DNA of 64,000 nucleotides from Callorhinchus milii (Eukaryota), in NCBI RefSeq assembly GCF_018977255.1, contig NW_024704742.1:97466001-97530000 (forward strand). The letters are read 5' to 3'. This document shows positions 14,471 through 51,681 of the stretch, in pieces; within the stretch, counting starts at the first letter, position 1, and each line of letters opens with the position of its first letter. Made by a program: the position numbers and the translations under genes. The notes below the pieces were generated by a model. The model had not been told where the DNA came from. It saw only the letters and a program-made list of their open reading frames with translations, and did no database searches.

Positions 14471-15960
14471 GTAGAGTCAAAGGAACATGTGGTACACTAT
14501 AATACATTACACATTTACATTTATATAGTGCCTTTACATCAGTAGCATCATAAAAGCAATGAGAGCTGGGGGAGGTAGAGCAGACATTGCAAGGGATGGG
14601 GGATGGATGGTGGCTTAGAGAAATGAGGGAAAAGGTCGGAGAAGGAAGTGGATGAGACTGAGATAGCCCAAATGAATGGGCTCAATTTTGGTCAAAGAAA
14701 GTTCTTGTGTTCTTCACATTTTGAATCAGAGGAGAGAAATTCTTCAAAATCTGTTCTCATTTTACTGCCAGGTTTACTCCCAGTGGCTGGCTGACATTTA
14801 TGTGACACATCCTTCACAGACCAAACACTTCAGAAGGGGATGTGTGTTGGCAGTCACACAAACAGGAACTCAGAGGTGCAACCAAAACCCACCAGAAATT
14901 GATATAGAGGCAGTACCAACAGTACACCTCAAAATTAACACTAGGGTTATCCACAAACCACTCAGAGGCTTGCTCTTGAGGATTCACCTCATAGCTGTTT
15001 GTATGACCTTAGGGACTCTAAAAGAAAAGTCACTACACTTGAAAGAAATTACCTGTTAAGTGTTTGGAGAGAACTTGACAAATAACATTATTTGATACAG
15101 TCCCTATGTAGTTCAGGACATATGTGCATGGACCGTCAGGAAGCGGAAGGCAAACTAGATGGGCTTTGATTTTTTTTTGTCGAGCGTTTCTTATGTTCTT
15201 AAAATAAGATGCTTTTAACAAGAATTAAAAATTTGAATTCAGTAGGGTTTTTGTTCAGGTATCAATACCCTCATTGATGTGGACAATCCTCATAACTAAG
15301 AAATGGATAAAATGGAAAAAACATTTCATTTTTTTCCACAAAGGGAGGACAAGTTTGCAAGGCTATGGGGGTAGAGAGAGTGGGATTGATTTCAAAGAGC
15401 TGGCACAGACACACTGGGCTGAATGGCCTCCTCTATGTTGTATAATTCCATCATTCAAGAAAGGAGTCATGGATAAAGTGTATGGATTTAACACCAATAT
15501 TCCTGTTTCACAGTTATTGATCAGTGCTTGTGAATTTGGCACAAATTTTAATGACAAAAACTATAAAAGGATTTGCATAACCAAAAAACTGACTTTTTTT
15601 CATCAATGCTGTGTTGTCACAGTGACTGAGGTATTATAAATCCAGATTAAATAAACACAGTAAATGCTGGAAGTGGCATTGTGTATTAACCAGTATCTGA
15701 AAGAGAAAGATAGGGCAATGTTTTTGGTGCCAATGGTGCCACGCATCAGCAGAGCTGGAACAATAAGCCATGAATACAAAGACCTGACCAAGAAAAATTG
15801 TGCATTTGCCCCATTTGAGCCTTCTAATGATTCAGTTCTTTCAAAATTTTAACCAATCTTCTTTCAAGTGCGGATCAACTCTGTTTAATCTCACAAGACA
15901 AGAAAATGTGTAATGGATTGTAATTTAATAATTTTGACATTTTTCATTGTTTTTGATCAG

Positions 15961-16182
15961 CACCACCTAATTCCCTGAACCTCAATGGAATCCAGGCTGG
16001 AAGGAAAAAGCTTGCTGCTCCTGAAATCAACCTTTCACTGGATCAGAGCGAGGGCTCAATCCTGTCTGACGACAACCTTGATACTCCAGATGACCTAGAC
16101 ATCAATGTAGATGACCTTGAAACCCCCGACGAGGCGGATTCTCTTGAATACTCCGGGCATGGTAATGAACTGGAGTGGGAAG
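15961..16182 (+). CDS. PRUNE2: PRUNE2-like exon, BNIP2 N-terminal acidic region ([10 protein letters not shown]...[50 protein letters not shown])
   Basis: ttttgatcAG acceptor; donor gaag|GTaaaa at 16183; 222 nt, phase 1-1, open frame. An alternative donor lies at 16162. Confidence 0.93.
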
Positions 16183-19100
16183 GTAAAAAAAAAACGGAAG
16201 AGAAAAAATTCACTGAGAAATTCATTTGTGATTTTTTTCCTTTTTGTTGCTTTTTTATACTTCATCTCCACTTTTTTTTTATATCATTGTTTTAATGATT
16301 TGAGAGTTTTCCTGTTCTGTTTTCTAAATGTGGAACATTTGTTGATGCGTATTGGGTTACTCAGCTCTCAAATGAGTCATTATATGCTCATAATTAACTG
16401 TTGTAAATGGTACCCCTTTATCATTTTACTTTTAATTTAAAAGTTCCATTGTTTATAACTTAGTAAATGGAGCAGAAGAGATTTGCCATTAAATTGGCTA
16501 CATTTAGCAAACGGAGCAGATTGACCCCATTATTTTTTTAATAATTTTCAATTGACATCATACTTTAATACTAGAATTATACAGCTATTCACTCATGTAA
16601 TGTGCCCCTTTCATTTCATAACATTCATAGCATTAGACCCTAGAAAATCAATACATATCAATTTCTAGATATGATTTAATATCTATCAGAAAATATGTCT
16701 GAATATAATTGCCAGAATTGTATATTCTAATTTCGTAACTATTGTAAACGCAGCATGAACGTGTATAATGTAAGCACCTATGAGTGAGTTTAGCCTTGCA
16801 TGATATATAGAATGATCTGAACATGGATTTGATGTCTGTGTGATTCGCTTGAACTTCAAAGTATCCTGTTATGTTGCTGAAAGGCTTTTTCCTTGGAAGC
16901 ATTAGTTTGATGAACTGAATTGTTGTTATTGTAACATTCTATTTGTGAATGGGAGTAATCAGTCTCGGGATTGGCAGAAAGGTATTGCAAAGAGTGGCTA
17001 AGATTTAACTTTGAATATCTTGTGGCAAACAAAGTGCATTTTCATTGCAGAATTTATATTGAAAGCTCTGCAATAACTAATTAGAATCGGCTCTGCAATA
17101 TTTGGTGTGATTCTCTCCATTTTTGGATGCATTTCACTGAAATGATTGATCCAATCTGCAATTTTAGCACCTCATAATTTGGGGAAGACACAGGTCTGTC
17201 TTGATTATCATTAAAAGAGCTGTTAGTCATTGAACTGTTCTATTGAAGCCAGATTTAATCCTTCATGTGCTGCAAAGAAGTTTAGTTATCTAGAAATCTC
17301 CTTTTAGTGAGGTCTGTTTACTTTCAAAATATCACCAAAACATTATTTCTGCTTTGGTGATATTGTACTCATCAAGAAACATTGTAATTATCTTCTAGAC
17401 ATGACCATTTAAATCTTCAATGGCATTCAGTAAGGTTGCAGTTACAGAGATATTTTGTAACTAATTAAATGGAAATCATTTCAAAGTGGCTCTCATCCCT
17501 AAAATGGATATTTTCGAAACAATTTCTATTTAATTAGTTACACAATGTCTCCAAATTAGGAGCAAGGGGACAGAAGGTAAGTAAGTGTTTTCAAATTAAA
17601 CAGAATACAATTTTATCTTTATGAATCGCATCATCTCCTAAATCATATATGCACCTGAGTCCCTTTCAGCTTCCTATCAAAGCCACTTAGATATATTTGC
17701 ACTAGCCGTATTTATCATCTCCTAACTCGTAATGCCACTATCCTATCCTCCATTGCTTCTGTACTTACTGGGCGGCATTGTATCGTGGGAAATGACATCC
17801 TGACCCATCGATGCATGCACACTTACCGTCCGGCTGCATTGAATCACAGGAAACTTAGTCTTGATCTGTCCCTCAGGGCAGAAGAACTTCATTCCCCCAA
17901 TTCAATGTGACTCCAATGCTTGTTCACATGCGGCGATCAGTCAGACATAATGAATTGTGAAAAAGGTAGTTTTGACCCATCATCGAATGTGTACTTATCC
18001 GTGGCAGTGACAAAATACCTCCTGTGCACTTACCGGCTGCAGCGACAACGTTTTTTTGGTTTGTCTGTTTGTTTTGGTCAGCTGGGTGTTTGTTACATAC
18101 AGAAACCCATCACTAATCTTAAAAGGATCCAAACCAAACTGAGATTTCCATGCATCCATCTACGCATGGAAATTCCAGAGATAGATTGTTGGAATGAAAT
18201 GCACACTCTCTCCCTGGTAGGATGCATCCTGCTTACCTAATTCTGGAAAGTATTAGGCACAGATTGGCAAGAGCCAAGGCTTGGGGACTCCAGGACCATT
18301 AGGGCTTTGGCTTCCAGGGTTGGCAGGAGCTGAGTGGGATGAGTCCCTGCCCCCAGTGACTGATCTGCGCTTTCATGTCCTCTGATGAGCCAGGCTGGCT
18401 GGCTATGCTGTCATCAGCAGTGCCCTGGAACACTGCGGACTCATCTGGCTCAGGAAGCAGACTACTAAGACCACCACAGAGGGCTGGCTCAACTCCGACA
18501 TTCCATTGCCAAACATGTTTAGATAATTATTTGTGGAGGATAAGTTTGCAGGCCTATGGGGAGAAAGCTGGGAAGTGGGATTGTATTGGATAGCTCTTTT
18601 CTAAGAGCTGATGCAGACATGGTGGGCTTCCTCCTGTGCTCTATAGTTCTACGATTCTATGTCACCTTGGAGCCAGTTCAGCACCAAGAAGACCCCACTT
18701 GTATAATCTCCCCTCCTCGCCCCCAAGAGGATATTCCAGTGACAAAGTACTGCATGGGCACCAATATGCCTATAACTCAAATGTTGTCTAAGTCATATTA
18801 AATATTTTGGTCCCGACTAATATGACTTATGTGATTTTTACCATAGACAACAAAAAATATATCTAAAATAATAAAAAACAACAATGCAAATAAAGAAGTC
18901 AAAAGAGATGGCAAGCAGAAATAGTTTTTTATTTTAAAATTATCCTATAAATGTTTGTTTTCATAGTTAACAGTGAATATTGTAACAATAATGTTGCCCT
19001 TAATCTTGAAGAGGTTTATTACTTTATCAGTGTTTATTTCAGCATCACAATGGGTAAGCTGTATGTTTTATACCTGACAGGTTAGGGAAATTATGATTCC

Positions 19101-20822
19101 CTGAACTGACTAGCAGCCTAAGGGTTACTATGACATTGCAAATGGGGAAGAGTCTTAATTTTCATGTGTTGTATTCCTGCCAATAGTAATAATATATCAC
19201 AATCATTAAAAGTCCTGTAACCCTATCTCACACAGGATGGCCCAGCATTTAACCAAGATGTTTCCTCCTTTTTCACATTCACTCTAAATACACCATCGTA
19301 TTTTGGAAACAAGTTTGTTGCACACCGTTAGTTGATAGAATTTAATATATATTTACATTAATATAGCTGTTTTTGTGGTGTGGCAGAATTGGCTTTTATA
19401 TGCATCCAATTTGCGAGTTTTTTGACTTTACTGTGAAGCAAAAGTATATTTGGCTACTTTGCTGAATGTTAAGGCTTGTTTTATGGACACAGCAGGGCCC
19501 CAATTTTGGCATGCAAACCTCTCTTGGGAAATTTATCTTCTGAAATCAGAAGGAAATCTATCCGTGTTTGCTGAGTAGACAAAGAAAGCCTCAATTCAGT
19601 AAGAGTATGCAGCATGAAATGGGTCAGTCTCTCTCACCCAGAAAATAACCGAGGCCAGGAAAAGTGAATGAAGAAACAAATTGATAATTCTGTGCATCTG
19701 GATGAATGATGCAACAGTGCAGAATTCATTATGGAAACTTGTTGATGAATGTTTTTCCAGTAACACCGTTCCAACAAATATTGGAAATGTATTGAAGAGA
19801 CCAGGGTATGATAGTGAGAGAATTGCTGTTTGTATACTGAATAGCGGAGGTTTATTGAACTTTCACAACTTTGCATGTCTCTCTCCAATTCTTCTGCCAC
19901 AATATGGATCTTCTTTTAAGATAAATCAAGGAAATCACAACATTTGTTTTACTGGCAAACTCTTTCTCTGCCCCTCCCTTTTCACCTCTGGCAACTCACC
20001 TCTAAGAAATGTGCTTTGCAACATAATCAGCGGTTTCCGCAGGAAAATCCTAACTCATCAAAAAGCTTCAGTTTTGACTCAATATCTCTTTGTATCTGAC
20101 AACCTCAGCGCTTCTATACAGTTTTCTACCAAAAACAGTTCTGCATTGCAAAACAGTTTTCTGGTAACACTAACCTTTTGAGAGAATTGCTTTTTCATTT
20201 CTTCTGTCAAATAGAGTAATAAGAGAATAAAATAAACAATGCCACACGTGCAAACGTTCTTCCCTCCCCCCACACCGTAAGTTTCATGCTGACAGATATT
20301 CATTGTCAGGGCATTGTAAATAAGTCTCAAATATCAGCTGAGAATTAAACAGTAACTTGTGAAGGACGAGTACATCAGAGAAAATGGAGTGGAAGCCCTT
20401 TGTGGCATTCTGTGTTTGCTCTTCTTTTGGCACAAAAAATAGAAAGTAATTGATTTTTACTGATTGATTTTCACTCCAAAAAGGGTATATCGCAGTGAAA
20501 AAATGTTTTTAAAAAGTGAATGTGGTAAAAACCTGAATTTACTGTTCTTCATACCATTAAAGACCATTAAATTTTGCCCACAAATAAATACAAAAGCCAA
20601 CTCTAATGAATCATTAATAAATTAAAACACTTCCACTTTGCTTGATAAATCTAGTTCCTGAATTACCACCATTTTTCATCCTGCTCCTATTCTGATTCTA
20701 ATTAATTACTGATGCAGAAAGGTGGTGGGAAATCTGGCACCTAATAATAGTTTTTTAAATGGGCATTCAATGTCAGGTGAAACTACGGCTAATATTTGAT
20801 TAGCTGACATCATTACTTAGGA

Positions 20823-21572
20823 TCATACAATCTTACAGCACAGAAGGAGGCCACTTGGCTCATCGTGCCTCTACCAGTTCTTTGAAAGAGCTATCCAACT
20901 AGTCCCGCTTCCCCGCTCTTACCCCATAGCCCTGCAAATTTTTTATTTTTAAGTACCTAACCGATTTCCTTTCGAAAGCTACTATCGAATCTGCTTCCAC
21001 CACCCATTCCAATAATGCATTCTAGACCGAAACAACTCTTTGGGTAAAAAAAAATTCTGCTCGTTTCCCCTCTGGTTCTTTGCCAATTATCTTAAATCTG
21101 TGTACTCAGGTTATGGAACCAACTGCCAAAGGAAACCATTTCTCCCTATCTACCTTATTTTAAAAAAAACTCAATTTTGAATACCTCTATTAAATTTCCT
21201 CTTGACCTTCTCTGCTGTAGAATGGAGAATAATTCTAAACACTCCACATAATTGAAGTCCCTCATCTCTGATATCATTCTTGTAAAACTCCTCTGCACAT
21301 TCTCAAAGATGCTGATATCCTTCCTAAAATGTGGTGCCCAGAATTGGGCACAATACTCCAACTGAGACCTAACCAGAGATTTGTAAAGGTTCAACATAAC
21401 TTCCTTGCTTTTATACTCTATGCCTCTATTTATAAAGCCAAGGATCCCACATGCATTTCAACAACTTTATCAACTTGTACCTTCAACCTTCTACCTTCAA
21501 AGATTTGCTTCTGTGAACCCCAGAGGTCTCTCTGGTCCTGCACCCCCTTTAAAATGGTACCATTTATCTTAT
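20823..21572 (-). mobile_element. CR1 LINE 3' part (segment 1 of an interrupted copy)
   Basis: Encodes LYKSLVRSQLEYCAQFWAPH and RGNLIEVFK; CR1 3' end at about 20823. Confidence 0.9.
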
Positions 21573-22825
21573 GTCATCCACAGAAACAGCTTTGGTCAAA
21601 GTGACAAATGACATTTTGTCCATCTGTAACCAGGGCTCCCTCTGCCTCCTCGTCCTCCTTGACCTCTCTGCTGCCTTCGATAACGTTGCCCACACCTCTC
21701 CTCTTACCTCAACCTTCATGGTTCTGTCCTTGAAAGATTCAGATCCTACCTCTCACACGGTCTCCGCTTCATCTCCACAAATAGCTTCTCCTCTTAGCCT
21801 CTGTGCTGTCTTATGCTGAGTTCCTCAGGTCTCTGTCCTTGCTCCCCTCTTTTTCACTATCTATATGCTACCTCTTGATGGCAACATCCGCAGACATGGG
21901 GTCAATTTTCACAAGTATGCGGATGACACCCAACTCTATCTCTCTGCCTCCACGCTTGATTCCAGGACCACTGCTGTCCTGACAGAATGTCTGTCAGATA
22001 TCAAGTCCTAGATGAGAGCTAACTTTCTATAGTTGAACATCAACAAGACTGCGGCTCTCCTGATTGGCTCCCATCAGCGCCTCCACACTTCAGGCAACCG
22101 AGCCAGTCCAGAATCTTGATGTCTTGTTTAACCCTCAACTATCTTTTCTACCCCACATCCGTGCCATGTCCCGCTCCACCTTTCCCCACCATCGCAACCT
22201 CGCCCGGCTCCACCACTGTCTCACACCGGAAGCCACCAAGACCCTCATACACACATTCATAACATCCAGGCTTGACTATGCAAACTCTCTACCTAACTCC
22301 TCCCTCCATAGGCTGTAGATCATCCAGAACTCTGCAGCCCATGTCTTCTCCTGCACCAGGCTCCATGAGCCTATCACCTTCATCCTTGCCCAACTCCACT
22401 GGCTTTCCATCACATAGGATACAGGTCAAGTTCCTGGTCCTCACCTTCAAAGCCCTCTATGACCATGCTCCCCCCTACCTCTGCAACCTCCTAACCCCTA
22501 CCAACCTGCCCTCTGCGTCCGCTCAGCAGGTTCCGGCCTGCTTCATGTCCCCTGCCTCGCACGCCCCACCATTGGTGGTCGGGCCTTCTGCCCCCACCCA
22601 CTGGACCTCCATCATGCAGTCCATCCAACTCATGTCCTCCCTTGCCTCCTTCAAGACCTGACTCAAGACCCTCCTCTTTGACGTGCCTTCAGTCACCCTC
22701 CTTCCACCCCTGCCCTCCACTCCCCTAATCCTGACCCCCAGCTCGGGTCCAAAACACTGATTGTCCAGTGCCTTGGATGTCCTCCCGATGTGAAAGGTGT
22801 TATACAAATGTAATTTTATTGTTGT
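21573..22825 (+). mobile_element. L2 LINE inserted into CR1
   Basis: Encodes STETALVKVTND, LLDLSAAFD, YADDTQ and SRLDYAN; (TTG) tail. Confidence 0.9.
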
Positions 22826-23252
22826 ATATTGCCTCCTCATTCCTGCTCCCCAAATGCATCACTTCACACTTAGCTGCATTAAATTCCACCTGCCATGTGT
22901 GTACCCATTTCACCAGCCTGTCTGTGTCCTCCTGCAATATGTTACTATCCTCCTCACTGTTTAGTACGTTTCTAGTACTTTAGTACATTACCTTTTACAA
23001 GTTTTGTATCATCTGCAAACTTTAACATTTTGCTCTCTATACCCAGGTCCAGGTCATTAATATATTAAAAAGACCAGTGGTCCTAATACCAACTCCTGGG
23101 GGACACCACTGTATACTTCCCTCCAGTCTGAAAAACAACCGTGCACTACTACCCTCTGCTTTCTGTCTCCCAGATAATTTCGGATCCATACTGCCACTTT
23201 AATCCCATGGGCTTCAATTTTGCTAACAAGTCTATTATGTGGCATTTTATCA
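22826..23252 (-). mobile_element. CR1 segment 2 (RT)
   Basis: Encodes PHNRLVSKIEAHG and SGVPQELVLGP; continuous with segment 1 by comparison with the copy at 32130. Confidence 0.9.
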
Positions 23253-25135
23253 ACAACAAAAGTAACAAAATTATATTTGTAAAGCGCCTTTCATGTCGGG
23301 AGGACATCCCAAGGCGATGGGCAGACAGAGTTTCGGACCCGAACTGGGGGTTGGGTGTACATGGTGGGCAGGGGGAGACCAGGGAGATCAAAAGCACGAT
23401 CGAAGAGGAGGGTCTTGAGATGGTTTTTGAAGGTGGCAAGGGAGGGGCGAGGCAGAGTGGCAGAAGGCCTGCCAGCCAATATTGGGGCGAGCTAGGCAGG
23501 GGACGTGAGGCAGGCCAGAGCCCGCTGAGCGGAGGGAGAGAGCAGGATGGTATGGGGTTAGGAGGTCACAGAGGTAGGGGGAACAAGATGTAGAGGACTT
23601 TGAAGGTGAGGACCAGGATCTTGAACTGTATCCTTAGTATTGAACTGTATGATGGGAAGCCAGTGGAGTCGGGTGAGGATGGTGGTGATAGGGTCAGGGA
23701 GCCTAGTGCAGGAGAGGACATGGGATACAGAATTCTGGATGATCTGCAGCCTATGGAAAAGGAGTTGGGGAGGCTGACAAGCAGTAAGTTTACATAGTCA
23801 ACCCTCGATGTAATGAAAGCATGTATGAGGGTTTTGGCGGCCTGTGGTGTGAGACAGTGGCGGAGCCGGGTGATATTGCAGAGGTGGGGGAAGGCAGAGC
23901 CGGGTCATGGTGCAGATGTGAGGTAGAAAGGATAGTTGAGGGTCAAACAAGATGCCAGGGTTCCAGACTGGCTTAGCAAGGTGGAGTGTGCAACCATGGA
24001 TGGTGATGCTGTCAGCAGCTGAGGTGAGGAGGTGCTGACAGGAGCCATTCAGGAGAGCCTCGGTCTAGTTGATGTTCAACTGAAGTAAGTTAGCTCTCAT
24101 CCAGGACTTGATGTCTGATAGGCATTCTGTCTATCCTCATCCTCACCTACAAGGCCATTCACGGCCTTGCTCCCTCCTACCTCTCCGACCTACTATCCCC
24201 CTACTTACCTGCCCGTACCCTCCGTTCCTCTGGCTCCGGTCTGCTCCACATCCCCCACGCCAACCGCCCTACCATCGGTGGCCGGGCGTTCAGCCTCTCA
24301 GCCCCTAGGCTCTGGAACTCCAACCCCAGTGCCTTCACCTTGCTTCCTCCCTTTCCTCCTTGAAGGCCGGTCTCAAGACCTTTCTCTTCGACCGTGCCTT
24401 CAGCTCCCCTCTCGACTCTCTACCCCTTCCTCACTCCCTCCCTTCCCTCACCCTGACCATTTCCTCCCTGCTCGGGTCCCGACCCAACTGTCCAGCGCCT
24501 TGGGACGTCCTCCTGACGTGGAAGGCACTCTATAAATGAAATCTTGTTGTTGTTGTCAGGACAGCAGTGGTCCTGGAGTCAAGAGTGGAAGCAGAGAGAT
24601 AGAGTTGGGTGTCATCTGCATACATGTGGAAGTTGACCCCATGTCTGCGGATTATGTCACCAAGAGGGAGCATGTAGATATTGAAGAAGAGGGGACCAAG
24701 GACAGACCTCTGAGGAACGCCTCACAAGACAGTGCGGGGGCTAGGGGAGAAGCCGTTTGTGCAGATGAAGTGGAGGTAGTGTGTGAGGTACAATCTGAAC
24801 TAGTCAAGGACAGAGCCGTGAAGGTTGAGGTGCGAGGAGAGGCGGTGGATGAGGATAAAGTGGGCGACGGTGTCGAAGACAGCAGAGAGGTCAAGGAGGA
24901 CGAGGAGGCAGAGGGAGCCTTGGTTGCAGATGGACAGAATGTCATTTGTCACTTTGACCAGGACTGTTTCTGTGCTATGGGCGGCACGGAAACCCAATTG
25001 GAGGGTTTCGTGAAGGGAATGGTGGGAAGGAGCGAAGCTGAGAAGCAACAACTCATTCCAGGATCTTGGAGAGGAAAGGGAGGTTGGAGATGGGGTGGTA
25101 GTTTGGGAGTAGAGATGGGCCCAGGGAGAGTTTTG
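23253..25135 (-). mobile_element. L2 LINE inserted into CR1, itself interrupted
   Basis: Encodes GFRAAHSTETVLVKVTND; interrupted at 24132-24553. Confidence 0.88.
24132..24553 (+). mobile_element. Young L2 3' fragment nested in L2
   Basis: Flanked by the duplicated tgtc (24128-24131 and 24554-24557); highly similar to 43975-44400. Confidence 0.9.
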
Positions 25136-25285
25136 AACACCTTTTGAAAGTCCATGTATACACATCAACTGCACTATCTTCCTTCATCAATCTTCTCTGT
25201 TACTTTATCGAAGAAGTCAATCAACTCAGTCAGAAGTTATTTGCCTTTAACAAATCCATGTTGGCTGTCATTTATTTACCCATGT
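25136..25285 (-). mobile_element. CR1 segment 3
   Basis: Encodes MDFQKVF; continues segment 2 (ttatcaa|acaccttttgaaag). Confidence 0.85.
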
Positions 25286-25984
25286 TATGTTACTTTTAAT
25301 AGTGCTCTTTCACTTCAATAGAACTGCTGAAATTATACCAGAAATGTATCTGTATTAACATCTCCTTGAATGCATCAACTTCAAGTTGGAGAATTGGTTT
25401 GTGTTTTTCATTCTGAACTGTGGATAGAACTGTGAAAAGCACTGAATATTTTCAATATATTTATTCACAGCTCAGAAATGGCATTAGGGATTAGTTTTAA
25501 TGTAAGTTTAGATACCTAGGTTGTGTGAATCCCAGGAAATTGAGAGTCGTCATGGATACCGCTCAGTTCTGCTTTAAATAATTACACATCAAGTGCCTTG
25601 AAGCCACAGTTGCTTGGCAGGAAGACTCTTTGATGCTGAAACGCTATTGACTGACTCATCTACAAGCGTATCAGACAACTCGACAGGCTAAATGGCCTAC
25701 TCCTGTTCCTATGTTCCTGAATCTCTGAAGGTTATGCTTGTGTGTGTGTGTATACAACTGTTGCAAAATGAGAATGCATACAAATGCATCACAAGATTGA
25801 ATTATGTTGTCGTAGGCTGATTTATATACTACTCAAAAGCATGATAGTTTATGGGTTCTGATGAATAAGTGATACAGAAAGTTGGAGAAAATCTGGCACC
25901 TAATAATAATCGTCTTTTAATGGGAATTTAATGTCGTCCAGATCACTGGATGAAGCAAGCCCATCCAATCTCATCCTTCCAGAA

Positions 25985-26290
25985 CAACAACAACCAAATT
26001 ACATTTGCAAGCGCCTTTCAGGTTGGGAGGAAGTCCCAAGATCCTGAACAGTCAGGGATTAGGACCCGAGCATTGGGGGCAGAGTGGGTAGGAGGGCGGC
26101 TAGAGGCACTGTCAAAAAGGAGGGTCTTGGGTCGTGCCTTGAAGGAGGCAAGGGAGGGAACAATGTGTAGGGATTGTGGGATGGAGTTCCAAAGGATGGA
26201 GGTTGAAGGTCCGACCGCTGATGGTAGGACCGGTTGGGTGGAGACATGGAGCAGGTCAGAACCTGCTGAATGGATGGAGGGGAATGAAGG
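25985..26290 (-). mobile_element. L2 3' fragment
   Basis: Encodes LWNSIPQSL...SLASFKARPKTLLF; (AAC)n tail. Confidence 0.85.
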
Positions 26291-26403
26291 GAGGGAGAAC
26301 AACCCCCAACTGTCTTTTTAAATAAGTCCAGGGTTCTAGCCTTAACCACCCTTCCTGGAAACCTGTTCCAGTTTTTGGATTATACAGTAAAACTCACATG
26401 GAT

Positions 26404-26765
26404 CAACAACAACAACAACTTGGATTTGTATAGCGCCCTCCACCCTGGATGGCATCTCAGAGCACTTCACAGTAATCGAGCCAGGGGGAGGGGAGGAAGG
26501 TGACCAAAAGCATGGTCGAAAAGAAAGGTGTTCAGCAGAGACCTGAAAATAGGAAGAAAGGGGTCGAGGCGAAGGGAGAGAGGAAGGGAGTTCCAGAGCC
26601 TCGGGGTGTAGTGGCTGAAGGCACGGGTGGAGCAGAGGACTCGGGGGACAAGGAGGAGGCCAGACCCAGAGGAACGAAGGCAACGGGCACTGTTTTGAGG
26701 AGAGTGGAGGTCAGAGAGGTAGGGGGGTGCAGAGAAGTGGAGGGATTTGAAGACAAGGGTGAAGA
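26404..26765 (-). mobile_element. L2 3' fragment (ttggatttatatagc subfamily)
   Basis: Shared 3' end with copies at 33925, 58940 and 62908. Confidence 0.88.
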
Positions 26766-29700
26766 TCAGTCGGATCATATCAGTCAGGACCATAACATTT
26801 AATGCGAATTACACAAAGTCCGAATAGCTGGCAAACTATACAAGTCATATAAAATCTGATTTAATCAATAATCTACATGGCGCATGCGTAATTCAAAGCA
26901 ACCGGTAAGTCCAGAGATACTGATCTGCACCGAAAAAAGTTTATGTTCACTTTTGCACTCAGTGCTGTACATAATGGAATCCAATGGAGCAGTGTAGACT
27001 ATTTTAACAGTTTGTACGGACATAATATTATAGCTGCCAATAACACTGGCACTCCCCTGAGTAAGAAAGCGCTGTATGTTGAGCTGTTCATACCAATTAA
27101 TCTAATTTTTTTCTCATTGGAGGATATTCTGCTCCATGCTCACTGCTGTGGACTTTGTGGCCATGTTGTAGGAAACAACACAAAATTAGATGTTGTCCAT
27201 CATGTGTGTTTTGGTCCTGAAGTAGTATTCTGGTCTTGTCCAAGAAACTATTATCAGGGAATTCACATTGAGCAACAGATATGTGTTCTTCTTTAGGCAG
27301 ATTTATGGAGTTGGTAAGAAGTAGAACCTTAATAACGATAATAATAATAATCCTTGTATTTTATATAGCACCTTACACATCAGGAGAACGTCCCAAAGCA
27401 CTTCACAGGATATATTGTAAAGTGGAGTAATTGTGATACACAACCTTACTAGAAGCAGTGACATTTAATGGCAGCATTCAACTCTCATGAACCAGAAATT
27501 ACTGTTTTTCTCAAACTGGTACTGATGTGTTGACATGTTCCAGTCAATGGTATAAAATTCTGTTACTCAGACTATTGTTCAGTCAAGCAGATCTTTTATG
27601 TCTTTGCTTACAATAAGAGTGAATGCAATCATTGTTTAAAAATTGCTACTTTGCCGTTGCTCCTGGGCCATACCTGTACCTAATTTTTGAACAAAGCTGT
27701 TGTCTTAGTAATCTTTGCATTTGATATAGCACCTTATCACTTCGTCGAGAGGTGTCAAAGCGCTTCACAGAATATCCTGTAAAGTGAATTGACTGCATAT
27801 TTTATGGGCAAAACACGGCAGCCAATTGCGCACAGCAGTGTCCCACCAACAGTTGAGGATTGAATGACCAAATTATTATTTTCAAAAAGTTTGAAGCGAT
27901 TACTACACCCTTCAATATGAGAACATACAAAATGTAGGAGGTTATTTTTATTTACTCTATGAATCATGAATCAATGCTAGTTTGGTTAGTATACTGTAAT
28001 GTCATTGTAACCCACAGCTGATGCTTGATGCTGATTGAACCTTCCAGTTTGCGCAACAAAATATTCAGTGACAGCTGATTCAGAAATGAAATGTGGAATC
28101 CTTAACTGCTATTTAGGCAGCTGAATTATAAGAAATAGTATTGAAGACTACCCAGCAGGTGGCAAAACCATTACACACTGACTGCTGCATTTGACTGGAA
28201 GCTGTATTTCACTAAAACCAGAAAAATGATACCTTCAGTACAAATCTGATTTTTACAGTGGAAATTGTAGAGCTTAAAATATTAAGCCCTTTATGGATCT
28301 TGCAACTTTATTTCATGAGAAATTTAAAGCAGTTTCAAACTTGGGCAAACACATTGGAGCCCCATTATAATGCAGTGCTTGGAATTCTAGAAAATTCCAA
28401 CACACATAATGAAAGCTGAGTTCGCTGCTCATGCCGCCAGCTGTCTTGCTCACCATGCGCCAGTCAGTTCCCACACTAAAAGACAAATTGACAGAACTTC
28501 CTTTTTGCATGGTCAATTATTGCAGCACACCCGCACCCTCTGTTAGAGTCTCACCCTAGAACATATGAGTTCAAAGTCCCTACTTGGAGTTTGAACTCAC
28601 AAGCTTGCTGACAATTGAGCCAGGTTGACACCACCTAACCATATTTATCGGTTGTTTTTAAGCACTTTTTGAGTCATTATTTTACTTAAAAAATTATGTA
28701 TAAGTGAAAGCTGTTACATTTTGCAGGAGTGGTCAGTACAGACCTTACTGGTTTTATTCCACTGACCAATACAGTAAGTATTAATGAAATAAGTACAATA
28801 AATAACAATGGAATTAGAAAAATATGTCATTGCAGATGCAAGTAAACAGGAAAGTATAAGTTTAAATTTTTTTAAAACAGGAAGAGAAACTTAAAACAAA
28901 GTTTTAGAAATTACTGAAGGAGTTTATTTGGCCTATTCAGCCTATGCTGGTGCTTGCTGCTTAAATTGAGTTTAACACTTCATTCCCCACCTTACCCTGG
29001 ATCCTATTGTTCTTTTCTTTGTGTTTAAGCAATTACTTTTTAAACATTAGAATGGTCTTAACTTCAATACTCATGGCAAAACATTTCATGTTTTAATAGC
29101 CCTCTATGTGGGGAGAAACTATTTTAAACTCCTCCTAAACTTTCTTCTGACCTCATAGGTAGAGTGGGAAATAAAGTAAAGTTGTAAATTATAATAGAAG
29201 TGAATAATGCAGACCAGGAGATCAGAAGCAGTGATTAAGGTTGCAACATTGCAGCCTGCCTAGAAATTCTACTCTAATTGATTTAGTGCTATTGCGTGGA
29301 TTCCATCCACTTTTGTGCCTCATTACTCTTATATAAAAAGTGTTTCAGAATGATTGTTTCACTGCCAGCCATTGTATTTCACATTATCTTGGATGTTATT
29401 TGCTTTATTTATCTACTTTGGAGTGCCACCAATATTTATTTGTGTGTTTCAAAAAAAGTGTGTATTAAAAAAAACTATTTTTATCAGTAGCTCTCGCACT
29501 TTAGCAATGTCTTTCATCCATGAACAATCCCTCCCCCATCTTCTTCAATGCTCTGCTTGCTACAAACAATCCCTTTTAATTCTCCCCTAATGTTCTTTCA
29601 GTTTTTCTTCCATCCATGATAAATGTTTCAGAGTTTTTTTAGTTTAATGACCAATCATTTTCTTTCCATTTCCATAAATTACTTAAAACATTTTTGTTTA

Positions 29701-30159
29701 TTATGAATTTAACTTGACCTGTTTATTTTAATACTTGTAACCTAGATTTGCTTAGTATTGGCCAACAGCATTGATTTCACAATCTTCCCTAAATTCTTAG
29801 CTCATTGCTTCAAGTTGACCTCTCCCCAACCCCAAAATGTAGTACAATACATCCATTTTATAAACCTTGCTTCACAATCTGTAACACAGTGTTAACTATA
29901 ATAGCATTTTCTGCAATAGTAATTTAAGAATTCCCCAACTTTCAGATTTCAGCTTTCTCAAACTGTCAGTGAAATATTGGATGCAGATTGGCTGATCTTC
30001 CTCATATCTTTTTGACACATATCAAAAAAGCATTTCTCCAGTATTTTAACAACAACAAATTGCATTTATGTAGCATTTTTCATGTCAGGAGGACATCCAA
30101 AGGTGTTGAAACTCCACAAGTTAACTCGCTCCTTTGAAACAGCAAATTTGAAACCAGCT

Positions 30160-30490
30160 AATGCAAAACTGTGCCATCTGCATACTCACCCGTACTAAAC
30201 TCCGTACTCCCATCACACCAGGCTCCACTGACTCCCTATCACCAAACAAATCAATTTCCAGATCCTCACACTTGTTTTCAAATCCCTTCATGCCCTGGCA
30301 TCTCCCTACCTCTGACCTGCTTACCCTCCAATCCACAACCCGCTGCCTCCGCTCGACTGGCTCGGCCTTCTGCATGTCCCTCGTGCCCTCTATTCCACTA
30401 TCAGCGATCCACTACGCCCCAAAGCTCTGCAACACTCTTCCTCTATTACTCTGCCTTGCCCCTTTCCTATCTTCAGGCCGCGCTTGAAGA
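30160..30490 (+). mobile_element. L2 fragment
   Basis: Encodes QNCAICILTRTKLRTPITP. Confidence 0.75.
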
Positions 30491-31167
30491 CCTTCGTGTG
30501 TTTTTGTTGGAGGAAGAACCAGTATTCTCAGAGTATATGACACTTTGTGCCAGAATTATAATACCTTGTTGTTGATACAGAGGGCATGTTTAATAAATTA
30601 TGATTAAATACTTCAACAGAAGCATAACTGTACAAAATAATATAAGAGTATTGTGTAAACAACAGGTGAACTTAAGCACTCTTAAGTTCATTGTGTTGAT
30701 TATAGTATGCTATGTATTGTTATTTCAATGAATTGAATCTTAGTCTGTCTGGATGAATGCATCTATTCATAATAATCCTTGATTTTATTGCAGAATACAT
30801 CTATTTGCCAGCAATTGAAGCAAAGAACAGATTGTTTTGACTTAATGCTTATACTAATATAGATTTAACACAAAGATTGTATTTGGAGCAACAAAACTAC
30901 ACTCCAAATAGCCTGCTTGGTCTCCATCAAAATGAACCCAACTAGGTGGCTCAGAGATGGAGATAGAAAAACAATGGTTTTAATTTTAGAAAAAATTAAA
31001 CCTTTTATTTTGATCTCTTTCTGTCACCTTTCCCCTTTCCATTTGATAATGGAATAATGCCTTGCACAACAGTGAAGTGCTTAGGGTGAAGTGCATTTTA
31101 ATAGCTAAATGTTCTTGTATACTCTTGCTGACATTTATTTACTGACTGGGGTATTCCCTCATTTTAG

Positions 31168-31344
31168 ATGAGACGCCTATTGCCACCAACACTGCAAAAG
31201 AGGAAGTGGAACCCATACCGGAATATACCGCGGAGCAAGAACGCACAGATAATCGGCTGTGGAGGACAGTTGTCATTGGAGAGCAGGAGCACAGGATTGA
31301 CATGAAGGCCATTGAACCTTACCAAAAGGTTATCTCTCATGGCG
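31168..31344 (+). CDS. PRUNE2: PRUNE2-like exon (DETPIATNTAKEEVEPIPEYTAEQERTDNRLWRTVVIGEQEHRIDMKAIEPYQKVISHG)
   Basis: attttAG acceptor, ggcg|GTatgt donor; 177 nt, phase 1-1. Contains the RLWRTVVIGEQE motif typical of BCH proteins. Confidence 0.95.
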
Positions 31345-32129
31345 GTATGTTAATTAATCAAATCACTTATGCTTTGACTAGAAACACGAGATGCACTCAA
31401 TTTATGATCGAGGTGTAAATTATTGTCACTGAGGGGCTGGGATTCAACCTCTGTTAATCTTGCAAGCTAAAACCCCCACACATAGTGTGAAACAGCAGCA
31501 AGAAGTTTGCCAGACAGTGCTTTCAAGCTACAAGATTTTAGCTGGTTAAACTCGAGCAATATCTCAATGCACGTTCTGGATTCTCAAGCCTTGGTTCTTC
31601 CTAACCTGCATCTAATACTCTCCAGAATAGGGTAAGCAGGATGTGTCCCTCCAGGAAGAGTGTGTGCATTCCAAACACAGAGAAAATTGTATATCTAGAT
31701 GGTATACCTATGTGGCACTCTCAGTCTGGTTTGGATACTCAAGAATTTTTAAGATACTGAAAATACTTAAGAATTCTAATGGACTTCTGTATGTGCCAGA
31801 CATTTAGCCGACCAAGTAAAAAGAGAAATAGTGTACAAGAGACACACTGAATTTTAAGATCAGGGTGTAGATTGTTTTAGCTCACTTCTCAGGTGCTTTC
31901 TTTAGTAGTAGAATTAGGAAAATATTATCATGCTGGGGAAAAGGAATTACTTTTTGTTACTTTATATAATTCTGCTACTAAACTTGACTTTTAGAAAGCA
32001 AAATCAACCTTTTCAGTAGAACAAAGCCTATTAATCCTGGCATATAGTGAACTTTCTGTGAGATGTTTACTTTGCCGATAAATGCTAAGAACACCTTTGG
32101 ATGTTTAGTGATTCTCCCTATGTTGTATA

Positions 32130-33924: not shown

Positions 33925-35251
33925 CAACAACAACAACTTGGATTTATATAGCACCCTCCATGCTGGACGGCGTCTCAGAGTGCTTCACAGTAACAGATCC
34001 TGGGGCTGAGCCAGGGAGAGGGGGAGGAAGGGACCAAAGGCGCAGGCGAAAAGAAAGGTCTTCAGCAGAGACTTGAAAATAGGAAGAGAAGGGGCAAGGC
34101 GAAGGGAGTGAGGAAGGGAGTTCCAAAGGCTGGGGGCATAGTGGCTGAATGCACGGCTGCCGAGGGTGGAGCAGAGGACTCGGGGGACAAGGAGGAGGCC
34201 AGATCCGGAGGAACGAAGGCAATGGGCACTGTTTTGATGAGAGGAGGTCAGAGAGGTAGGAGGGTTCAGAGGAGTGGAGGGATTTGAATACAAGGGTGAG
34301 GATCTTGAAGTCAATCCTTTCTGGGACAGGCAGCCAATGCAGTCTGGCAAGGACTGGGGTGATCGGGGAGCGGAGTTTGGTGCAGGTGAGAATGCGGGCG
34401 GCAGAGTTTTGAATAATCTGGATTTTATGGATGGTAGTGGATGGGAGGCCGATGAGGAGGGTGTTTGAATAGTCCAGCCGAGAGTTGACAAAGTCATGGA
34501 CCAGGGTTTCAGCGGCTTTCGGAGAGAGGTATTGGCGGAGATGGGTGATGCATCAGAGGTGGGAGAAGGCAGTGCTGGTGAGGGACCGGATGTGGGGGAG
34601 GAAGGATAATTGGGGGTTGAACCTGACGCCTAGGTTGTGTATGGGTTCGGAGAGTTTTAGGGGGAGGTCGGGTAGGTGGAGGAGGTGAGAACTGTGAGAT
34701 TTTAGATGTTGACGAGAGCCAAAGAGTATGGCTTCCGTCTTGTCAAAGTTCAGCTGAAGTAAATTTGCGCTCATCCAGCTCCTGAGGTCTGACAGGCAGC
34801 CTGACAGAACATCAGGGGACCGAGGGTCACAAAGTGAAGGTGGAAAAATAGAGTTGGGTGTCGTCTGCATACATGTGGAAGTGTACCCCATGTCTGCGGA
34901 TGAATCCCCAAGAGAGAGCATGTAGATCAGAAAGAGGAGAGGGCCAAGGATGGATCCCTGGGGTACCCCACAGGTAACCGGGTGAGAGCGGGAGGAGAAG
35001 CCGTTTGTGCAGATGTGCTGCTGGAGGTTTGTGAGGTAGGACTCGAACCAGGCAAGTGCAGTCCCACTGAGGTGGATGACGGAGGAAAGGCTGTGGAGGA
35101 GGATGGTGTGATCGACTGTATCGAACGCGGCGGAGAGGTCCAGGAGGACAAGGAGGCAGAGGGATCCCTGGTCACAGATAGAGAGGATGTTGTTTGTGAC
35201 TTTTACAAGCGCAGTCTCTGTACTGTGGGCAGGATGGAAACTGGACTGGAG
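33925..35251 (-). mobile_element. L2 LINE with 8-bp TSD
   Basis: Encodes HSTETALVKV, LLDLSAAFDTVDH and GVPQGSILGP; gactacta duplicated at 33917 and 35252. Confidence 0.93.
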
Positions 35252-35499
35252 GACTACTAGACCCATAGTTGAATCTCTGAAATGAAATTTACAAATGAAT
35301 TAACCCAATTGTCCAGAGTATTTTGTTGGAAGGTAAATGCACATCAATCCACTTTTACAGTGAAGCACTTTGTGACATGACATGAAGGGCCATATATCAA
35401 CGGCAAGGATAACCTTTATTACTGTGAAATAAATTTCCCTTTCTACCACTCCTATTAGCCAAAAGAGAAACATTTGAAGGTATCCATTGCAACTCACTT

Positions 35500-36658: not shown

Positions 36659-36761
36659 GATACTATAGTGACGGACTCAATGCCATTATTGTGTTTGCTG
36701 CGTGTTTCCTACCAGAGAGTACTGGAGACAACTATCACTATGTTATGGAGAATCTTTTTTT
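36659..36761 (+). CDS. PRUNE2: BCH-domain exon ([35 protein letters not shown])
   Basis: tttctcAG acceptor, tt|GTgagt donor; 103 nt, phase 1 to 2. Confidence 0.95.
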
Positions 36762-40370: not shown

Positions 40371-43300
40371 AACAATCACAAAATTACATTTGTATAGCGC
40401 CTTTCACGTTGGGTGGATGTGGAGAGTGGGGCAAAAGAAGGGTAATTGAAGGCATGGTTGAAGAGGAGGGTCTTGAAACGGGTCTTGAAGGAGGCAAGGG
40501 AGGGGTTGAGGCGGAGGGACTGCGGGATGGAGTTCCAGAGGGTGGCAGCAGAGTGGCTAAAACCCCACCTGCCAATAGTGGGGTGGCGAGGCAGGGGGCA
40601 TGAAACAGGCCGGAGCCCGCTGATTGGAGGGAGCGGGCAGGTTGGTAGGGGGTTAGGAGGTCACAGAGGTAGTGGGGAGCAAGGCCATGGAGGACTTTGA
40701 AGGTGAGGACCAGGAGCTTGAACTATATCCTCTGTATAATGGGAAGTCAGTGGAATCGGGCGAGGATGAGGCTGATAGAGTCACAGAACCTGGTGCAGGA
40801 GAGAACATGGGCTGCAGACATCTGGGTGATCTGCAGCCTGTGCAGGGAGGAGTTGGGGAGGCCGACAAGCAGGGAGTTTTCATGTTATGAATGCATGTAT
40901 GAGGGTTTCGGCGGCCTGCGGTGTGAGACCGTGGCAGAGCCGGATGATGTTGCGGAGGTGGGGGAAGGCAGAGCGGGTTATGGCATGAATGTGAGGTAGA
41001 AAAGATGGTTGAGGGTCAAACAAGACACCATGGTTCCGGACTGGCTTAGTAAGATGGAGTGCGCATCCATGGATGGTGAAGCTTTCAGCACCTGAGTTGT
41101 GGAGACGCTGATGGGAGCCATTCAGGAGAGCCTCAGTCTTGTTGATGTTCAACTGTAGAAAATTAGCTCTCATCCAGGCCTTGATGTCTGCCAAACATTC
41201 TGTCAGGACAGCAGTGGTCCTGGAGTTGAGGGTGGAGGCAAAAAAATAGAGTTGGGTTTCATCCGCATATATGTGTAAGTTGATCCCATGTCTGCGGATG
41301 ATATCACCAAGTTGGAGGATGTCGATATTGAAGAGGAGGGGACCAAGGACAGAGCCCTGAGGAATGCTGTACGAGATGGTGCGGGGGCTAGAGAAAAAAC
41401 TGTTTGTGGAGATGAAGTGGAGATGGTGTGAGAGGTAGGATCTGAACCATTCAAGGACAGAACCATGAAGGTTGAGGTGAGAGGAGAGGCGTGGAGGAGG
41501 ATAGAGTGGTCAACAGTATCGAAGGCAGCAGAGAGGTCAAGGGGGCAAGGAGGAAGAGGGAGTCTTGGTTGCAGATGGACAAAATGTAATTTGTCACTTT
41601 TACCAAAGCTGTTTCTGTGCTGTGGGTGGCTTGATTAGAGGGGTTCATGAAGTGAGAGGTGGGAGAGGAAAGAGCGAAGCTGGGAAGCAATGACCTGTTC
41701 CACAACCTTGGAAAGGAAGGTTGGAGATGGAGCAATAGTTTGAAAGTAGGGATGGGTCCACAGAGGGTTTTTTAAGGATAGGAGTGATGATGGCAATTTT
41801 TAAATGGATGGGAACCGCTCCATTGGACAGGGAGAGGTTTATGATGTCGATGAGTGGAGGGGCAAGGAGGTGAAGCTGAGAAGTAAGGAGAGGGGTAGGG
41901 ATGGGTTCGATGGAGCAGGTGGTTGGTTTCATGCGGGTTATAGAGGTGGTGAGAGAGGAGGGGGAGGTGGGTTCGAAAGTGTGGAGGGATGGGTGGGGAG
42001 AATGGGAGTAGGGACCGGCGTGTGAGAGGGAGGTGTGGTGGTGGTAGTAGTCAGAAGGGCAGAGGCAGCTGAGTGGGGTCCCCTCGACTTTGGTTTTGAG
42101 GACATTCAGCATTGCCTCGCAGTTGCCATTAGAGGATAGGATGGACGAGATGTGAGAGGGTGGGCGGAGGGGCCAGTTGGTGATGGAGAAAAGGAGCTGG
42201 GGTTGTCCTTGGCCTCCAAGATTGTCTTGTAGTAGAGGGACAATTTGGCAGAGACGACAGTGGAGCAGTAAGTTTTGATAAAGTCCAGCCAGATCTGCCG
42301 ATGGACCGTTATGTTGGATTTGAGCCATGAGCATTCGGTGACATGCACCTGTGCCTTGAGGGAGCAGAGATGGCTGGTGTACCAGAGTGACTTCTGTGAG
42401 AAGGAGGCAGTTTGGGAAGTGAGGGGAGCAAGGGCATCGAGAGTCCTGGAAAGGGAGTTGGTGAGCAGAGTGACTGAGGAGGATGGGTCATTGGGATAGG
42501 AAGTCCAGAGGGTGAGGCGTTCAGATGATTCCAAAGCAGTGTAGAGGGAGGGGGGAAGATTTTTGTCCAGATTTGGTAGGAGATGGAGGTGTTGGGTGGC
42601 AATGGGGAGAGGGATTGAGGAGTTAAGGGAGATGAAGTAACCAAGATAAAGTAACCGAGGTATCTTTGTCGGTGATGGTGAGGTTCGAGACAGTGAGGGT
42701 CTGGGTGATCATCAGGCTGAGGGGCTGACCGCGGACCTGGAGAGTGGATGAGGAGGAAAGAGAAGTCAGCAGTGGTAGAGCAGGAGGGAGTGAAGTGAAG
42801 ATTGAAGTCATCTAGGATGAGGAAGCGTTCGGAGCAGAGGGAGAGGGAAGATAGGAGGGTGGAGATACCAGGAAGGAAGGTGGGGAGGGCTTGGGGTGGG
42901 GGCGAGTGGTTAATAAACGAGGAGAATTTTGAAGGAAAGGCTGGGGGGGGGGGGGGTGATAAAAGGAAAGGTGCTCAAAGGAGGGGAAAGTTTCTGAGGA
43001 ATCTTCAGGAGATGAGAGCCACATCGCCACCATGGCGGTTAGGTTGTGGGGTATGATGGAAGGTGCAGCTGGGTGGTGTGGACAATGTCGGGGTAAGGTG
43101 GTGCCTGGAGTGACCCAGGTTTCGGTGAGGGCGAGGATGTCGATCTTTTCATTGACAATCAGGTCTTGGATGGTGAGAGTTTTATTGGAGAGGGAGTGGA
43201 CATTTGTAGGCCAATGCGGAGGGAACAGTTAGTGGTGAAATGTGGGGGACGAGGAGGACAAGGGGGTGATTGACAGGAAGGGTGGGGATGTGGATGAGGG

Positions 43301-43420
43301 AAGAGAGGTTGACACTTGGGGTCAGAGACCGATGGGCCTTGTGGTGAGAATGGGGGATAGGGCAATCAGAGTGGCTACTGTTGGACAGACAGCGGGGTCT
43401 GCCGCCAAGGGCCCTACAGA
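40371..43420 (-). mobile_element. Long decayed L2 LINE (APE endonuclease + RT)
   Basis: Minus strand encodes DILALTETWV (endonuclease), AIITPILKKP, HSTETALVKV and WMRANFLQLNINKTE; multiple frameshifts. Confidence 0.93.
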
Positions 43421-43685
43421 GGATTTGCCTCATCTGCCTGTTCAGGTGAACGTTAAAGATTCCATGGCACTATTTGGAAAGAGAAGGCGTTTCTCCAAGT
43501 GTGTTGGTCAACAATCCCCCAAATAAAATTGTTCATTCATCTCCTGGCTGTTTGTGGGACATTGTTTTGTTCAAATTGGCTGTCGCGTTTGGCTATAAAA
43601 TGGATACTCATTACACTTTAGAGTAAAATCCTGTTAAGCACTTCAAGATTTCTCACAGATGTGATAAGGCGCTATATCAAATTCA
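43421..43685 (+). mobile_element. Deu-type SINE (3' part)
   Basis: aacgttaaagattccatggcactatttgg Deu-like core plus the shared tail. Confidence 0.75.
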
Positions 43686-43974
43686 GTCAGTTTAGATTGT
43701 ACATTGGTTTATCTAAGTCAAAATATTACTGAAGTAAAATAGGAGCGAACAGATTTAAGAACTTATAAATGGGTATTAAAATATTTGATCATTGGCATTA
43801 ATGGAGTGAAAGATATATCTTAGTGCAAGCTGGATGGAATCCAGCCAAGCCTAATTTTGTGAAAGTATACTCTCTGCTCCCTCTAATTGAATGAATTCCA
43901 TTAGTCTCAATTCATTACCTATTGGGAATGAGTCCAATGTAGGTCCAAACCTCCTCTGCTTCAAAGGTGTTTTA

Positions 43975-44590
43975 CAACAACAACGACAAGATTCCATTTA
44001 TTGAGCGCCTTTCACGTCGGGAGGACGTCCCAAGGCGCTGGACAGTTGGGTCAGGACCCGAGCAAGGGGGGAAATGGTCAGGGTGAGGGGAGGGAAGGGA
44101 GGGAGCGAGGAGAGGGTAGAGAGTCGAGAGGGGAGCTGAAGGCACGGTCAAAGAGAAAGGTCTTGAGACCGGCCTTGAAGGAGGAAAGGGAGGAGGCAAG
44201 GCAAAGGCACCGGGGGATAGATTTCCAGAGCCTCAGGGCTGAGAGGCTGAAGGCCCGGCCACCGATGGTAGGGCGGTTGGGGCGGGGGATGTGGAGCAGA
44301 CCGGAGCCAGAGGAATGGAGGGTACAGGCAGGTAGGTAGGGGGATAGTAGGTCGGAGAGGTAGGAGGGAGCAAGGCCGTGAATGGCCTTGTAGGTGAAGG
44401 TGAGGATCTTGAATTTGATCCTCTGGGGGATGGGGAGCCAGTGGAGGCGAGTGAGGGTGGGAGTGATGTGGTCGCGAAGCCTGGTGCGGGACAGTACACG
44501 AGCTGCAGAGTTCTGAATGACCTGCAGCTTGTGGAGGGATGTGCTGGGAAGGCCGGCGAGGAGAGAGTTCCCATAGTCCAGCCTTGAGGT
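43975..44590 (-). mobile_element. Young L2 3' fragment
   Basis: Intact 173-aa frame [14 protein letters not shown]...QNSAARVL...LHWLP. Confidence 0.93.
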
Positions 44591-45385: not shown

Positions 45386-45439
45386 ATATATTTGTTAGTG
45401 TCGTTATTAATCCCATAGTGAGAATAACATTTCCTACAG

Positions 45440-47084: not shown

Positions 47085-47216
47085 GTATGTGATTAGTACT
47101 TTGGAGCTCCTGGTAGCTGAGGACTACCTGATAGTTTATCTGAATGGAGCGACTCCACGAAGGAGAATGCCAGGATTTACTTGGATGAAAAGGTGCTATC
47201 AGATGATAGATAGAAG
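47085..47216 (+). CDS. PRUNE2: BCH-domain exon ([44 protein letters not shown])
   Basis: acAG acceptor, ag|GTgagt donor; 132 nt, phase 2-2. Contains the RRRMP arginine patch. Confidence 0.95.
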
Positions 47217-47858: not shown

Positions 47859-47945
47859 GCTGAGGAAGAACCTGAAATCATTTATAATTGTGCATCCATC
47901 GTGGTTTATCAGAGCGATCCTTGCTGTTACTCGGCCTTTCATTAG
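47859..47945 (+). CDS. PRUNE2: BCH-domain exon ([29 protein letters not shown])
   Basis: cacAG acceptor, ag|GTaagt donor; 87 nt, phase 2-2. Confidence 0.95.
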
Positions 47946-51582: not shown

Positions 51583-51681
51583 TTCAAAGTTCAGCAGTAA
51601 GATAAGATACGTCAGTAGCCTGACTGAGCTGGAGGAACTGATTCCAATGCAACATGTTCAGATTCCAGAGGGCATCAGGAA
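51583..51681 (+). CDS. PRUNE2: BCH-domain exon ([33 protein letters not shown])
   Basis: cttctcttcAG acceptor, aa|GTaagt donor; 99 nt, phase 2-2. Confidence 0.95.

Follow-up and report, generated by a model that had tools for sequence, protein, structure and literature searches.

Two potential 5' splice sites lie 21 nt apart at the end of an exon of the Callorhinchus milii genome, and the 21 nt between them encode a sequence resembling a kinesin-binding motif, which raises the question of whether splicing decides if the protein carries that motif. We investigated this using the window, i.e., the whole 64,000-nucleotide stretch of DNA in which the exon lies, together with public transcript and protein data. 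Alternative use of the two donors is real and takes away the sole W-acidic motif of PRUNE2, and the pair is shared with at least the newt. For the explanation as a whole, that the single W-acidic motif of PRUNE2 is included or omitted according to which of two competing 5' splice sites is used, we estimate a probability of roughly 60%.

The best protein matches of the exon were shark PRUNE2 proteins, with 88-92% across the exon. A tree of 32 rows, built without BNIP2 or BNIPL, separated PRUNE2 from ATCAY with support of 100/100 and placed the window gene inside PRUNE2, where it joins the PRUNE2 of cartilaginous fishes (98/93) and forms the sister lineage of ten sharks and rays (93/93, drawn open). 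The 2997-residue model P0532 includes the window's long form exactly (299/299 residues) and contains the domains PF02833 (DHHA2), PF12496 (BNIP2) and PF13716 (CRAL_TRIO_2), which is the full-length PRUNE2 layout. An ATCAY or BNIP2 identity of the gene is ruled out by the tree and the DHHA2 domain. The window covers the 3' half of PRUNE2, the N-terminal part lying outside it. Seven exons were located between 11840 and 51681 (Table 1), with open frames of 299 residues when the distal donor is used and 292 residues with the proximal donor; we looked for PRUNE2 exons after 51681 within the 64-kb window and found none, nor was any adjacent gene identified there. The 3' end of the first of the seven exons is the loose end preceding position 15960 in the contigs of run X1, and a primer given in PMC3327665 identifies this exon as the homologue of mouse PRUNE2 exon 10, the start of the short brain isoform.

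Table 1. Features of the PRUNE2 locus in the window (positions counted from the first letter of the window).
Feature	Positions	Strand	Evidence
PRUNE2 exon with GMDIPF segment	11840..11919	+	tblastn; boundaries from spliced model
Constant part of alternatively ended exon, N-terminal BNIP2 domain (PF12496)	15961..16161	+	contigs 15960-16160/16161
Proximal 5' splice site ATG/GTAATG, short form	16159..16167	+	joint 16161>31168, protein P0544
Alternative 21 nt, GNELEWE with flanking bases	16162..16182	+	completes ELEWED
Distal 5' splice site AAG/GTAAAA, long form	16180..16188	+	joint 16182>31168, protein P0532
U-rich tract, four T runs, candidate splicing enhancer	16232..16280	+	50-100 nt below distal donor; T5 count
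Common 3' splice site TTTTAG/ATGAG	31150..31167	+	contig joints
Downstream exon, DETP..., start of BCH region	31168..31344	+	contigs, tblastn, spliced model
BCH-domain exon	36659..36761	+	tblastn, spliced model, protein match
BCH-domain exon	47085..47216	+	tblastn, spliced model, protein match
BCH-domain exon	47859..47945	+	tblastn, spliced model, protein match
BCH-domain exon, last located within window	51583..51681	+	tblastn, spliced model, protein match

An earlier, sequence-only reading had described two in-frame donors, CATG/GTAATG (exon end 16161) and GAAG/GTAAAA (exon end 16182), both in phase 1 and both joined to an acceptor at exon start 31168. The sites are as claimed, and their phase is borne out by the coordinates and by the open frames of both spliced forms. 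The 299- and 292-residue frames differ by the heptamer GNELEWE alone, confirming that the proximal donor removes exactly these residues. In the long form, the GT AAT of the proximal site is part of the Gly-Asn codons (GGT-AAT). Scored with a simple donor matrix, the proximal donor gave 1.83 and the distal donor 4.13, the six other donors ranging from 0.9 to 7.9. A score equal to or above that of the proximal site was found at 6.1% of the 3525 plus-strand GT sites in the window and, judged on sequence alone, this donor could have arisen by chance; it is also the sole internal GT with a score of at least 1 across the seven exons. A NAGNAG acceptor at 31168 was rejected, as the AGs lie at 31166 and 31171 and form no in-frame tandem.

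Both junctions are used in transcripts. The exon is contained in 13 runs, none of which is recorded as RNA, and four of these, presumed to be RNA, were mapped as contigs over 15900-31400 (X1 and X3 from study P1, X5 and X6 from study P2); in such contig data minor forms drop out and depths are rough. The proposed junctions 16161>31168 and 16182>31168 were both recovered as GT..AG joints in transcript contigs from these four runs, the short joint in three (two studies) and the long joint in two (one study), so the proximal donor is not a mere paper site. Both isoforms are already present in public databases as automatic models. The model P0544 matches exactly over 259 residues that include the short junction, although it is not fully independent support because it may come from the same public reads. 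Separately, the depth in run X5 rises from 69.9 to 94.9 across 31168-31197, with a contig break 30 nt past the acceptor and none at 16161, hinting at a second route into exon 31168..31344. Removal of the entire 222-nt alternatively ended exon would stay in frame, and the whale shark model P0129 starts MN-DETP.

The long form reads ELEWED at the junction, a Trp flanked by acids with Leu at -2, and the short form has no Trp there. In P0532, which has 21 Trp residues, ELEWED was the sole match to two W-acidic patterns; P0544 had none. W-acidic motifs are described as a Trp with Asp/Glu flanks and Leu at -2, as in TNLEWDD of SKIP (PMC6214655, PMC5753338); they bind kinesin light chain (KLC) at its TPR domain and can activate kinesin-1, and in other adaptors one such motif can suffice (PMC6214655). 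ELEWED agrees with the sequence definition of ELM LIG_KLC1_WD_1, so the proposal of a kinesin-adaptor-type motif in PRUNE2 holds at the level of the motif, from which we infer KLC binding. In caytaxin, the GNGNELEWEDD region contacts the KLC TPR domain and binding of the peptide has been measured (PMC11658413). A BNIP-2 mutant without its two Trp motifs shows no co-localization with KLC1 and does not rescue migration control, and the BNIP-2 motif is required for RhoA scaffolding (PMC7399486). An upstream acid-flanked partner Trp motif was absent from P0532, the nearest Trp residues being those of SMVWSNE (166 residues) and TQSWTVL (236 residues); in two sharks, KENWLxE occurs at a distance of 106 residues upstream of the motif. 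The motif segment is acidic and lies upstream of the BCH domain, and a PDB sequence search returned no solved structure for it, the lone match, at E 1.5, being due to chance. By analogy with these adaptors, the long form of PRUNE2 is predicted to couple to kinesin-1.

We then surveyed the exon in other vertebrates, assigning species groups from names or else by cluster. The counts cover the models listed, with 15 members per large cluster, and exclude read-throughs (P0025, P0198, P0215, P0217, P0219, P0224, P0227) and models without the exon (P0346-P0348, P0351, P0352, P0354, P0358). Elasmobranchs have the long form with Trp in 63 of 64 listed models from 18 named species (62 spliced and one read-through; one is without the exon), and none of the 62 listed spliced shark and ray models has the short form. 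The same holds for early ray-finned fishes (long form with Trp 35/35 listed models, short form 0/35). The coelacanth has the long form with Trp in five of six models (four NCBI, one UniProt), the short form being one UniProt model. Among salamanders, 12 of the 15 listed Pleurodeles models and all four other salamander-type models are long with Trp, and GNELDWE is the sole difference within each of the Pleurodeles RefSeq isoform pairs X1/X2 (618/611 residues) and X12/X13 (324/317). Among the reptile models listed, the long form with Trp was found in both non-gecko lizards, in one of two from the tuatara and in two of 21 from turtles (Pelodiscus and Carettochelys), the remaining 19 turtle models being short. 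The listed models of birds (38/38), frogs (25/25) and snakes (3/3) are all short. All five gecko models (P0233, P0301, P0360, P0361, P0362) have the seven extra residues with the Trp gone (GNELLGE, GNESLGK), and 13 clupeid models have a Trp in a shorter context, with the motif HEMDWDE.

Among distant representatives (139 examined with a loose pattern), a W-acidic motif stands at this position in 30 of the 91 that could be anchored, which is consistent with an old origin of the motif there. Of 232 caytaxin-like sequences, four teleost models (two NCBI isoforms, two UniProt) lack exactly the seven residues, so that splicing at the homologous proximal donor can occur in the paralogue as well; teleost caytaxin models without the heptamer are P0248, P0275, P0282 and P0291, plus P0562. 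A metagenome scan for PRUNE2 DNA of other vertebrates yielded only a fish BNIP2 exon (L001) and an unrelated bacterial sequence (L002), and the donors of other vertebrates were therefore deduced through protein read-throughs alone. Two further observations concern the models themselves. Four sardine models (P0321, P0395, P0396, P0399) have a KH-domain N-terminus, probably through read-through from an adjacent hnRNP K-like gene, and a one-residue tandem-acceptor choice occurs at the homologous junction in newt (P0310/P0339), human (P0478/P0473) and bowfin (P0182/P0008).

In mammals, all 44 spliced models listed read Y-x-x-H-(E)-D without the heptamer, and splicing at the homologue of 16161 was thus predicted correctly; the human sequence EYTGH(E)DPTANK, given in that earlier reading, was found in P0216 and P0478. 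A mouse primer spanning exons 11/12 has, when reversed, CATG joined to AAGAT, i.e., the proximal junction (PMC3327665). The further suggestion that mammals lost the motif through a donor shift stands as far as the homologous proximal junction is concerned, but the loss is not particular to mammals. The long form persists in salamanders, lizards and two turtles, which makes several origins of the short-only state probable, and the motif-less state of several tetrapod groups has been established in part. The short-only state of frogs, snakes and turtles is seen in protein models alone and may reflect missing annotation. Geckos represent a second route of motif loss, via substitution.

Four mammal-type read-throughs go on as H/G-K and, set against GNELEWEG, have GKSLSWQG, GKLPSWQD, GKSPGCQG (bear) and GKWPSGQG; a bird-type read-through has GSILDCKC. 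A register test on these five was clear in one, P0227, where identities gave a P of about 0.001; in the other four it was weak, with P values of 0.03-0.11 for base changes and 0.24 for identities. The four mammalian read-throughs are, moreover, related to one another. Because only GKSLSWQG is clearly above chance, the mammalian read-throughs are suggestive of a decayed heptamer kept in register. Judging from the residues, the H/G-K continuation fits a mammalian proximal donor in which GTAAT has given way to the consensus GTAAG. Full-length mammal-type PRUNE2 (P0541, P0535) has the W-acidic-like sequences DLDWDD and NIDWEI in a large acidic region, and long mammalian isoforms might still bind KLC.

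This distribution bears directly on the leading alternative, namely that the splicing is real but unselected. A latent GGT-AAT donor would come into play where the distal site is weak and the motif would be a leftover of the ancestor shared with caytaxin; its presence would matter little, and lineages would therefore drift to the short form. Such an account fits the patchy use of the proximal donor (none of the 62 elasmobranch models listed, four of the 232 caytaxin-like sequences), which also led us to regard the switch as patchy given the absence of the short form from the listed shark, ray and early ray-finned models. It further fits the many losses, including that of the Trp in all five gecko models with the long exon end, and the frequency with which the score of the proximal site occurs by chance. 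On the other hand, the dominant donor flips between samples, the same isoform pair is annotated in the newt, and the motif is nearly invariant in the listed models of sharks, rays, early ray-finned fishes, the coelacanth and salamanders. We consider unselected splicing unlikely, but it deserves to be taken seriously.

Another possibility is that the switch is regulated but mainly serves a different TPR protein, e.g., the ubiquitin ligase CHIP, and so governs PRUNE2 turnover instead of transport. The WED region of caytaxin has been proposed as a ligand of the CHIP TPR domain, but the same peptide is the one whose binding to the KLC TPR domain was measured (PMC11658413), and the PRUNE2 motif matches the SKIP pattern L-E-W-D/E-D (PMC6214655). 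CHIP and kinesin roles are not mutually exclusive, and we regard CHIP as an improbable main target.

The dominant donor differs between the four runs mapped, which might reflect tissue or cell type. In contig depths, run X1 gave the long joint at 379.7 with the short joint unlisted, X3 gave both (short 31.2, long 9.26), and X5 and X6 gave the short joint at 69.9 and 17.7 with the long joint unlisted. The two joints of X3 total 40.5, close to the depth of the upstream contig common to both (38.9), which corresponds to about 77% short form. These differences could be allelic, the ratio tracking the genotype near the donor and not the tissue: both runs of study P2 have the short joint only, and the spliced contigs, all from runs taken as RNA, leave the intronic donor bases uncovered. 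However, the runs of study P1 differ strongly from each other, no variant is listed within the exon, and the newt pair would require a second, independent polymorphism, making an allelic origin more improbable still. An origin of one of the junctions in a processed retrocopy, or through an assembly artefact, is conceivable as the runs are only presumed to be RNA, but is very hard to reconcile with GT..AG joints that in both cases span 15 kb between exon pieces without other letters, with a depth of 0-4.5 in unique intron bins versus 6-162 in exon bins, the pattern expected of spliced RNA, and with a spanning contig for each form (1008 nt across the long joint in X1, 1244 nt across the short joint in X6), each having ~180 letters on its shorter side and no extra letters.

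We therefore favor competing donors, and propose the following mechanism. Both donors join one acceptor in frame, leaving the heptamer in or out as observed in the contigs, and the inserted heptamer completes ELEWED, which is the sequence of caytaxin at the same exon junction. Donor choice may be regulated by cell type, the long form probably being neural, since the long-only run is the deepest and short PRUNE2 is brain-enriched in the mouse (PMC3327665). The 120 nt below the distal donor contain 11 overlapping T5 matches, as many as are seen in 0.1% of windows, and the other six introns have 0-2; T runs were one of eight patterns tried. U-rich tracts act through TIA1/ELAVL proteins, and the tract at 16232-16280 might perhaps help the distal donor. 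Nova, Rbfox, Mbnl, QKI, PTB and TGC motifs showed no enrichment below the distal donor, that of YCAY (Nova) being non-significant (equalled in 7% of windows). Tetrapod lineages would later have fixed the short form, for which the protein models provide part of the evidence, and in mammals the proximal site would have become GTAAG while the 21 nt decayed into intron, as the read-throughs in part indicate.

The 15-kb intron between the donors and their acceptor also contains an inverted pair of repeat fragments (21579-22460 and 23590-24975, ~80-90% complementary) that could form double-stranded RNA. Elsewhere in this intron, run X1 has three low-depth A>G differences (17031, 21183, 30999). Degenerate reverse-transcriptase-like frames, i.e., LINE fragments, which we take to be of the L2/CR1 type, fill the introns (33944-35299, 40880-46214, 49432-49995, 59072-63410).

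In evolutionary terms, we can tentatively envisage an ancestral jawed-vertebrate switch, biased to neurons and with its donor in the Gly-Asn codons, that made PRUNE2 an on-demand kinesin-1 adaptor. The switch would survive in chimaeras, the coelacanth and newts, and would have become locked off on separate occasions in frogs, mammals, birds, snakes and most turtles, and in geckos by loss of the Trp, leaving axonal transport to caytaxin. This scenario is possible but doubtful: the absence of the short form from the listed shark, ray and early ray-finned models calls for caution in choosing between an ancestral switch and a recurrently recruited GGT-AAT donor. The repeated loss in tetrapods shows that PRUNE2 can do without the motif.

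As W-acidic motifs not only bind kinesin-1 but also activate it, a 21-nt donor shift would come close to the minimal on/off switch for coupling to the motor. Such a shift would account for the lack of a motif beside the BCH domain, which sets mammalian PRUNE2 apart from its close paralogues, and both an intermediate (both donors live) and a putative fossil (a decayed heptamer at the mammalian intron start) would be visible. One motif would have been lost repeatedly by two routes, and the two isoforms offer a natural matched protein pair for probing the kinesin coupling of a Rho-scaffolding BCH protein. Short linear motifs in disordered regions can in general be alternatively spliced, an in-frame segment adding or removing one interaction motif. 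Our literature searches returned no case in which competing donors switch a W-acidic kinesin motif on and off, and no description of the PRUNE2 splice choice or of a PRUNE2-KLC link. The absence of the motif from mammalian PRUNE2 may already have been noted by Aoyama 2009, Dodding 2011 or Pernigo 2013. PRUNE2 isoforms are listed in Figures S1-S2 of PMC3327665, which may bear on the splice choice.

Among known systems, the closest is caytaxin (ATCAY/BNIP-H), whose read-throughs (GNELEWEDD) carry an identical GNELEWE, then D, at this phase-1 exon junction and which, like BNIP-2, shares the BNIP2 plus BCH layout. The fish BNIP2 exon L001 stops at the corresponding point, with AGC-AAT and no GT at the proximal position. 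Both paralogues include the motif constitutively in nearly all cases and pair it with an upstream W motif (WQ/WE ... WED), whereas in the PRUNE2 of the window it is optional and single. Mammalian PRUNE2/BMCC1 (Bmcc1s, BNIP-XL) is the orthologue and has the same exon and the same proximal donor but, unlike the gene described here, uses that donor only in all listed models; Bmcc1s has been described as a MAP6 binder (PMC3327665), and our searches turned up no tie to kinesin for it. The choice between UNC-83a/b and UNC-83c in C. elegans offers a parallel, as there too the isoform governs kinesin-1 engagement of a W-acidic adaptor, although all UNC-83 isoforms retain EWD and alternative promoters vary an inhibitory N-terminal domain (PMC13224763), whereas in PRUNE2 the choice of donor removes the motif itself.
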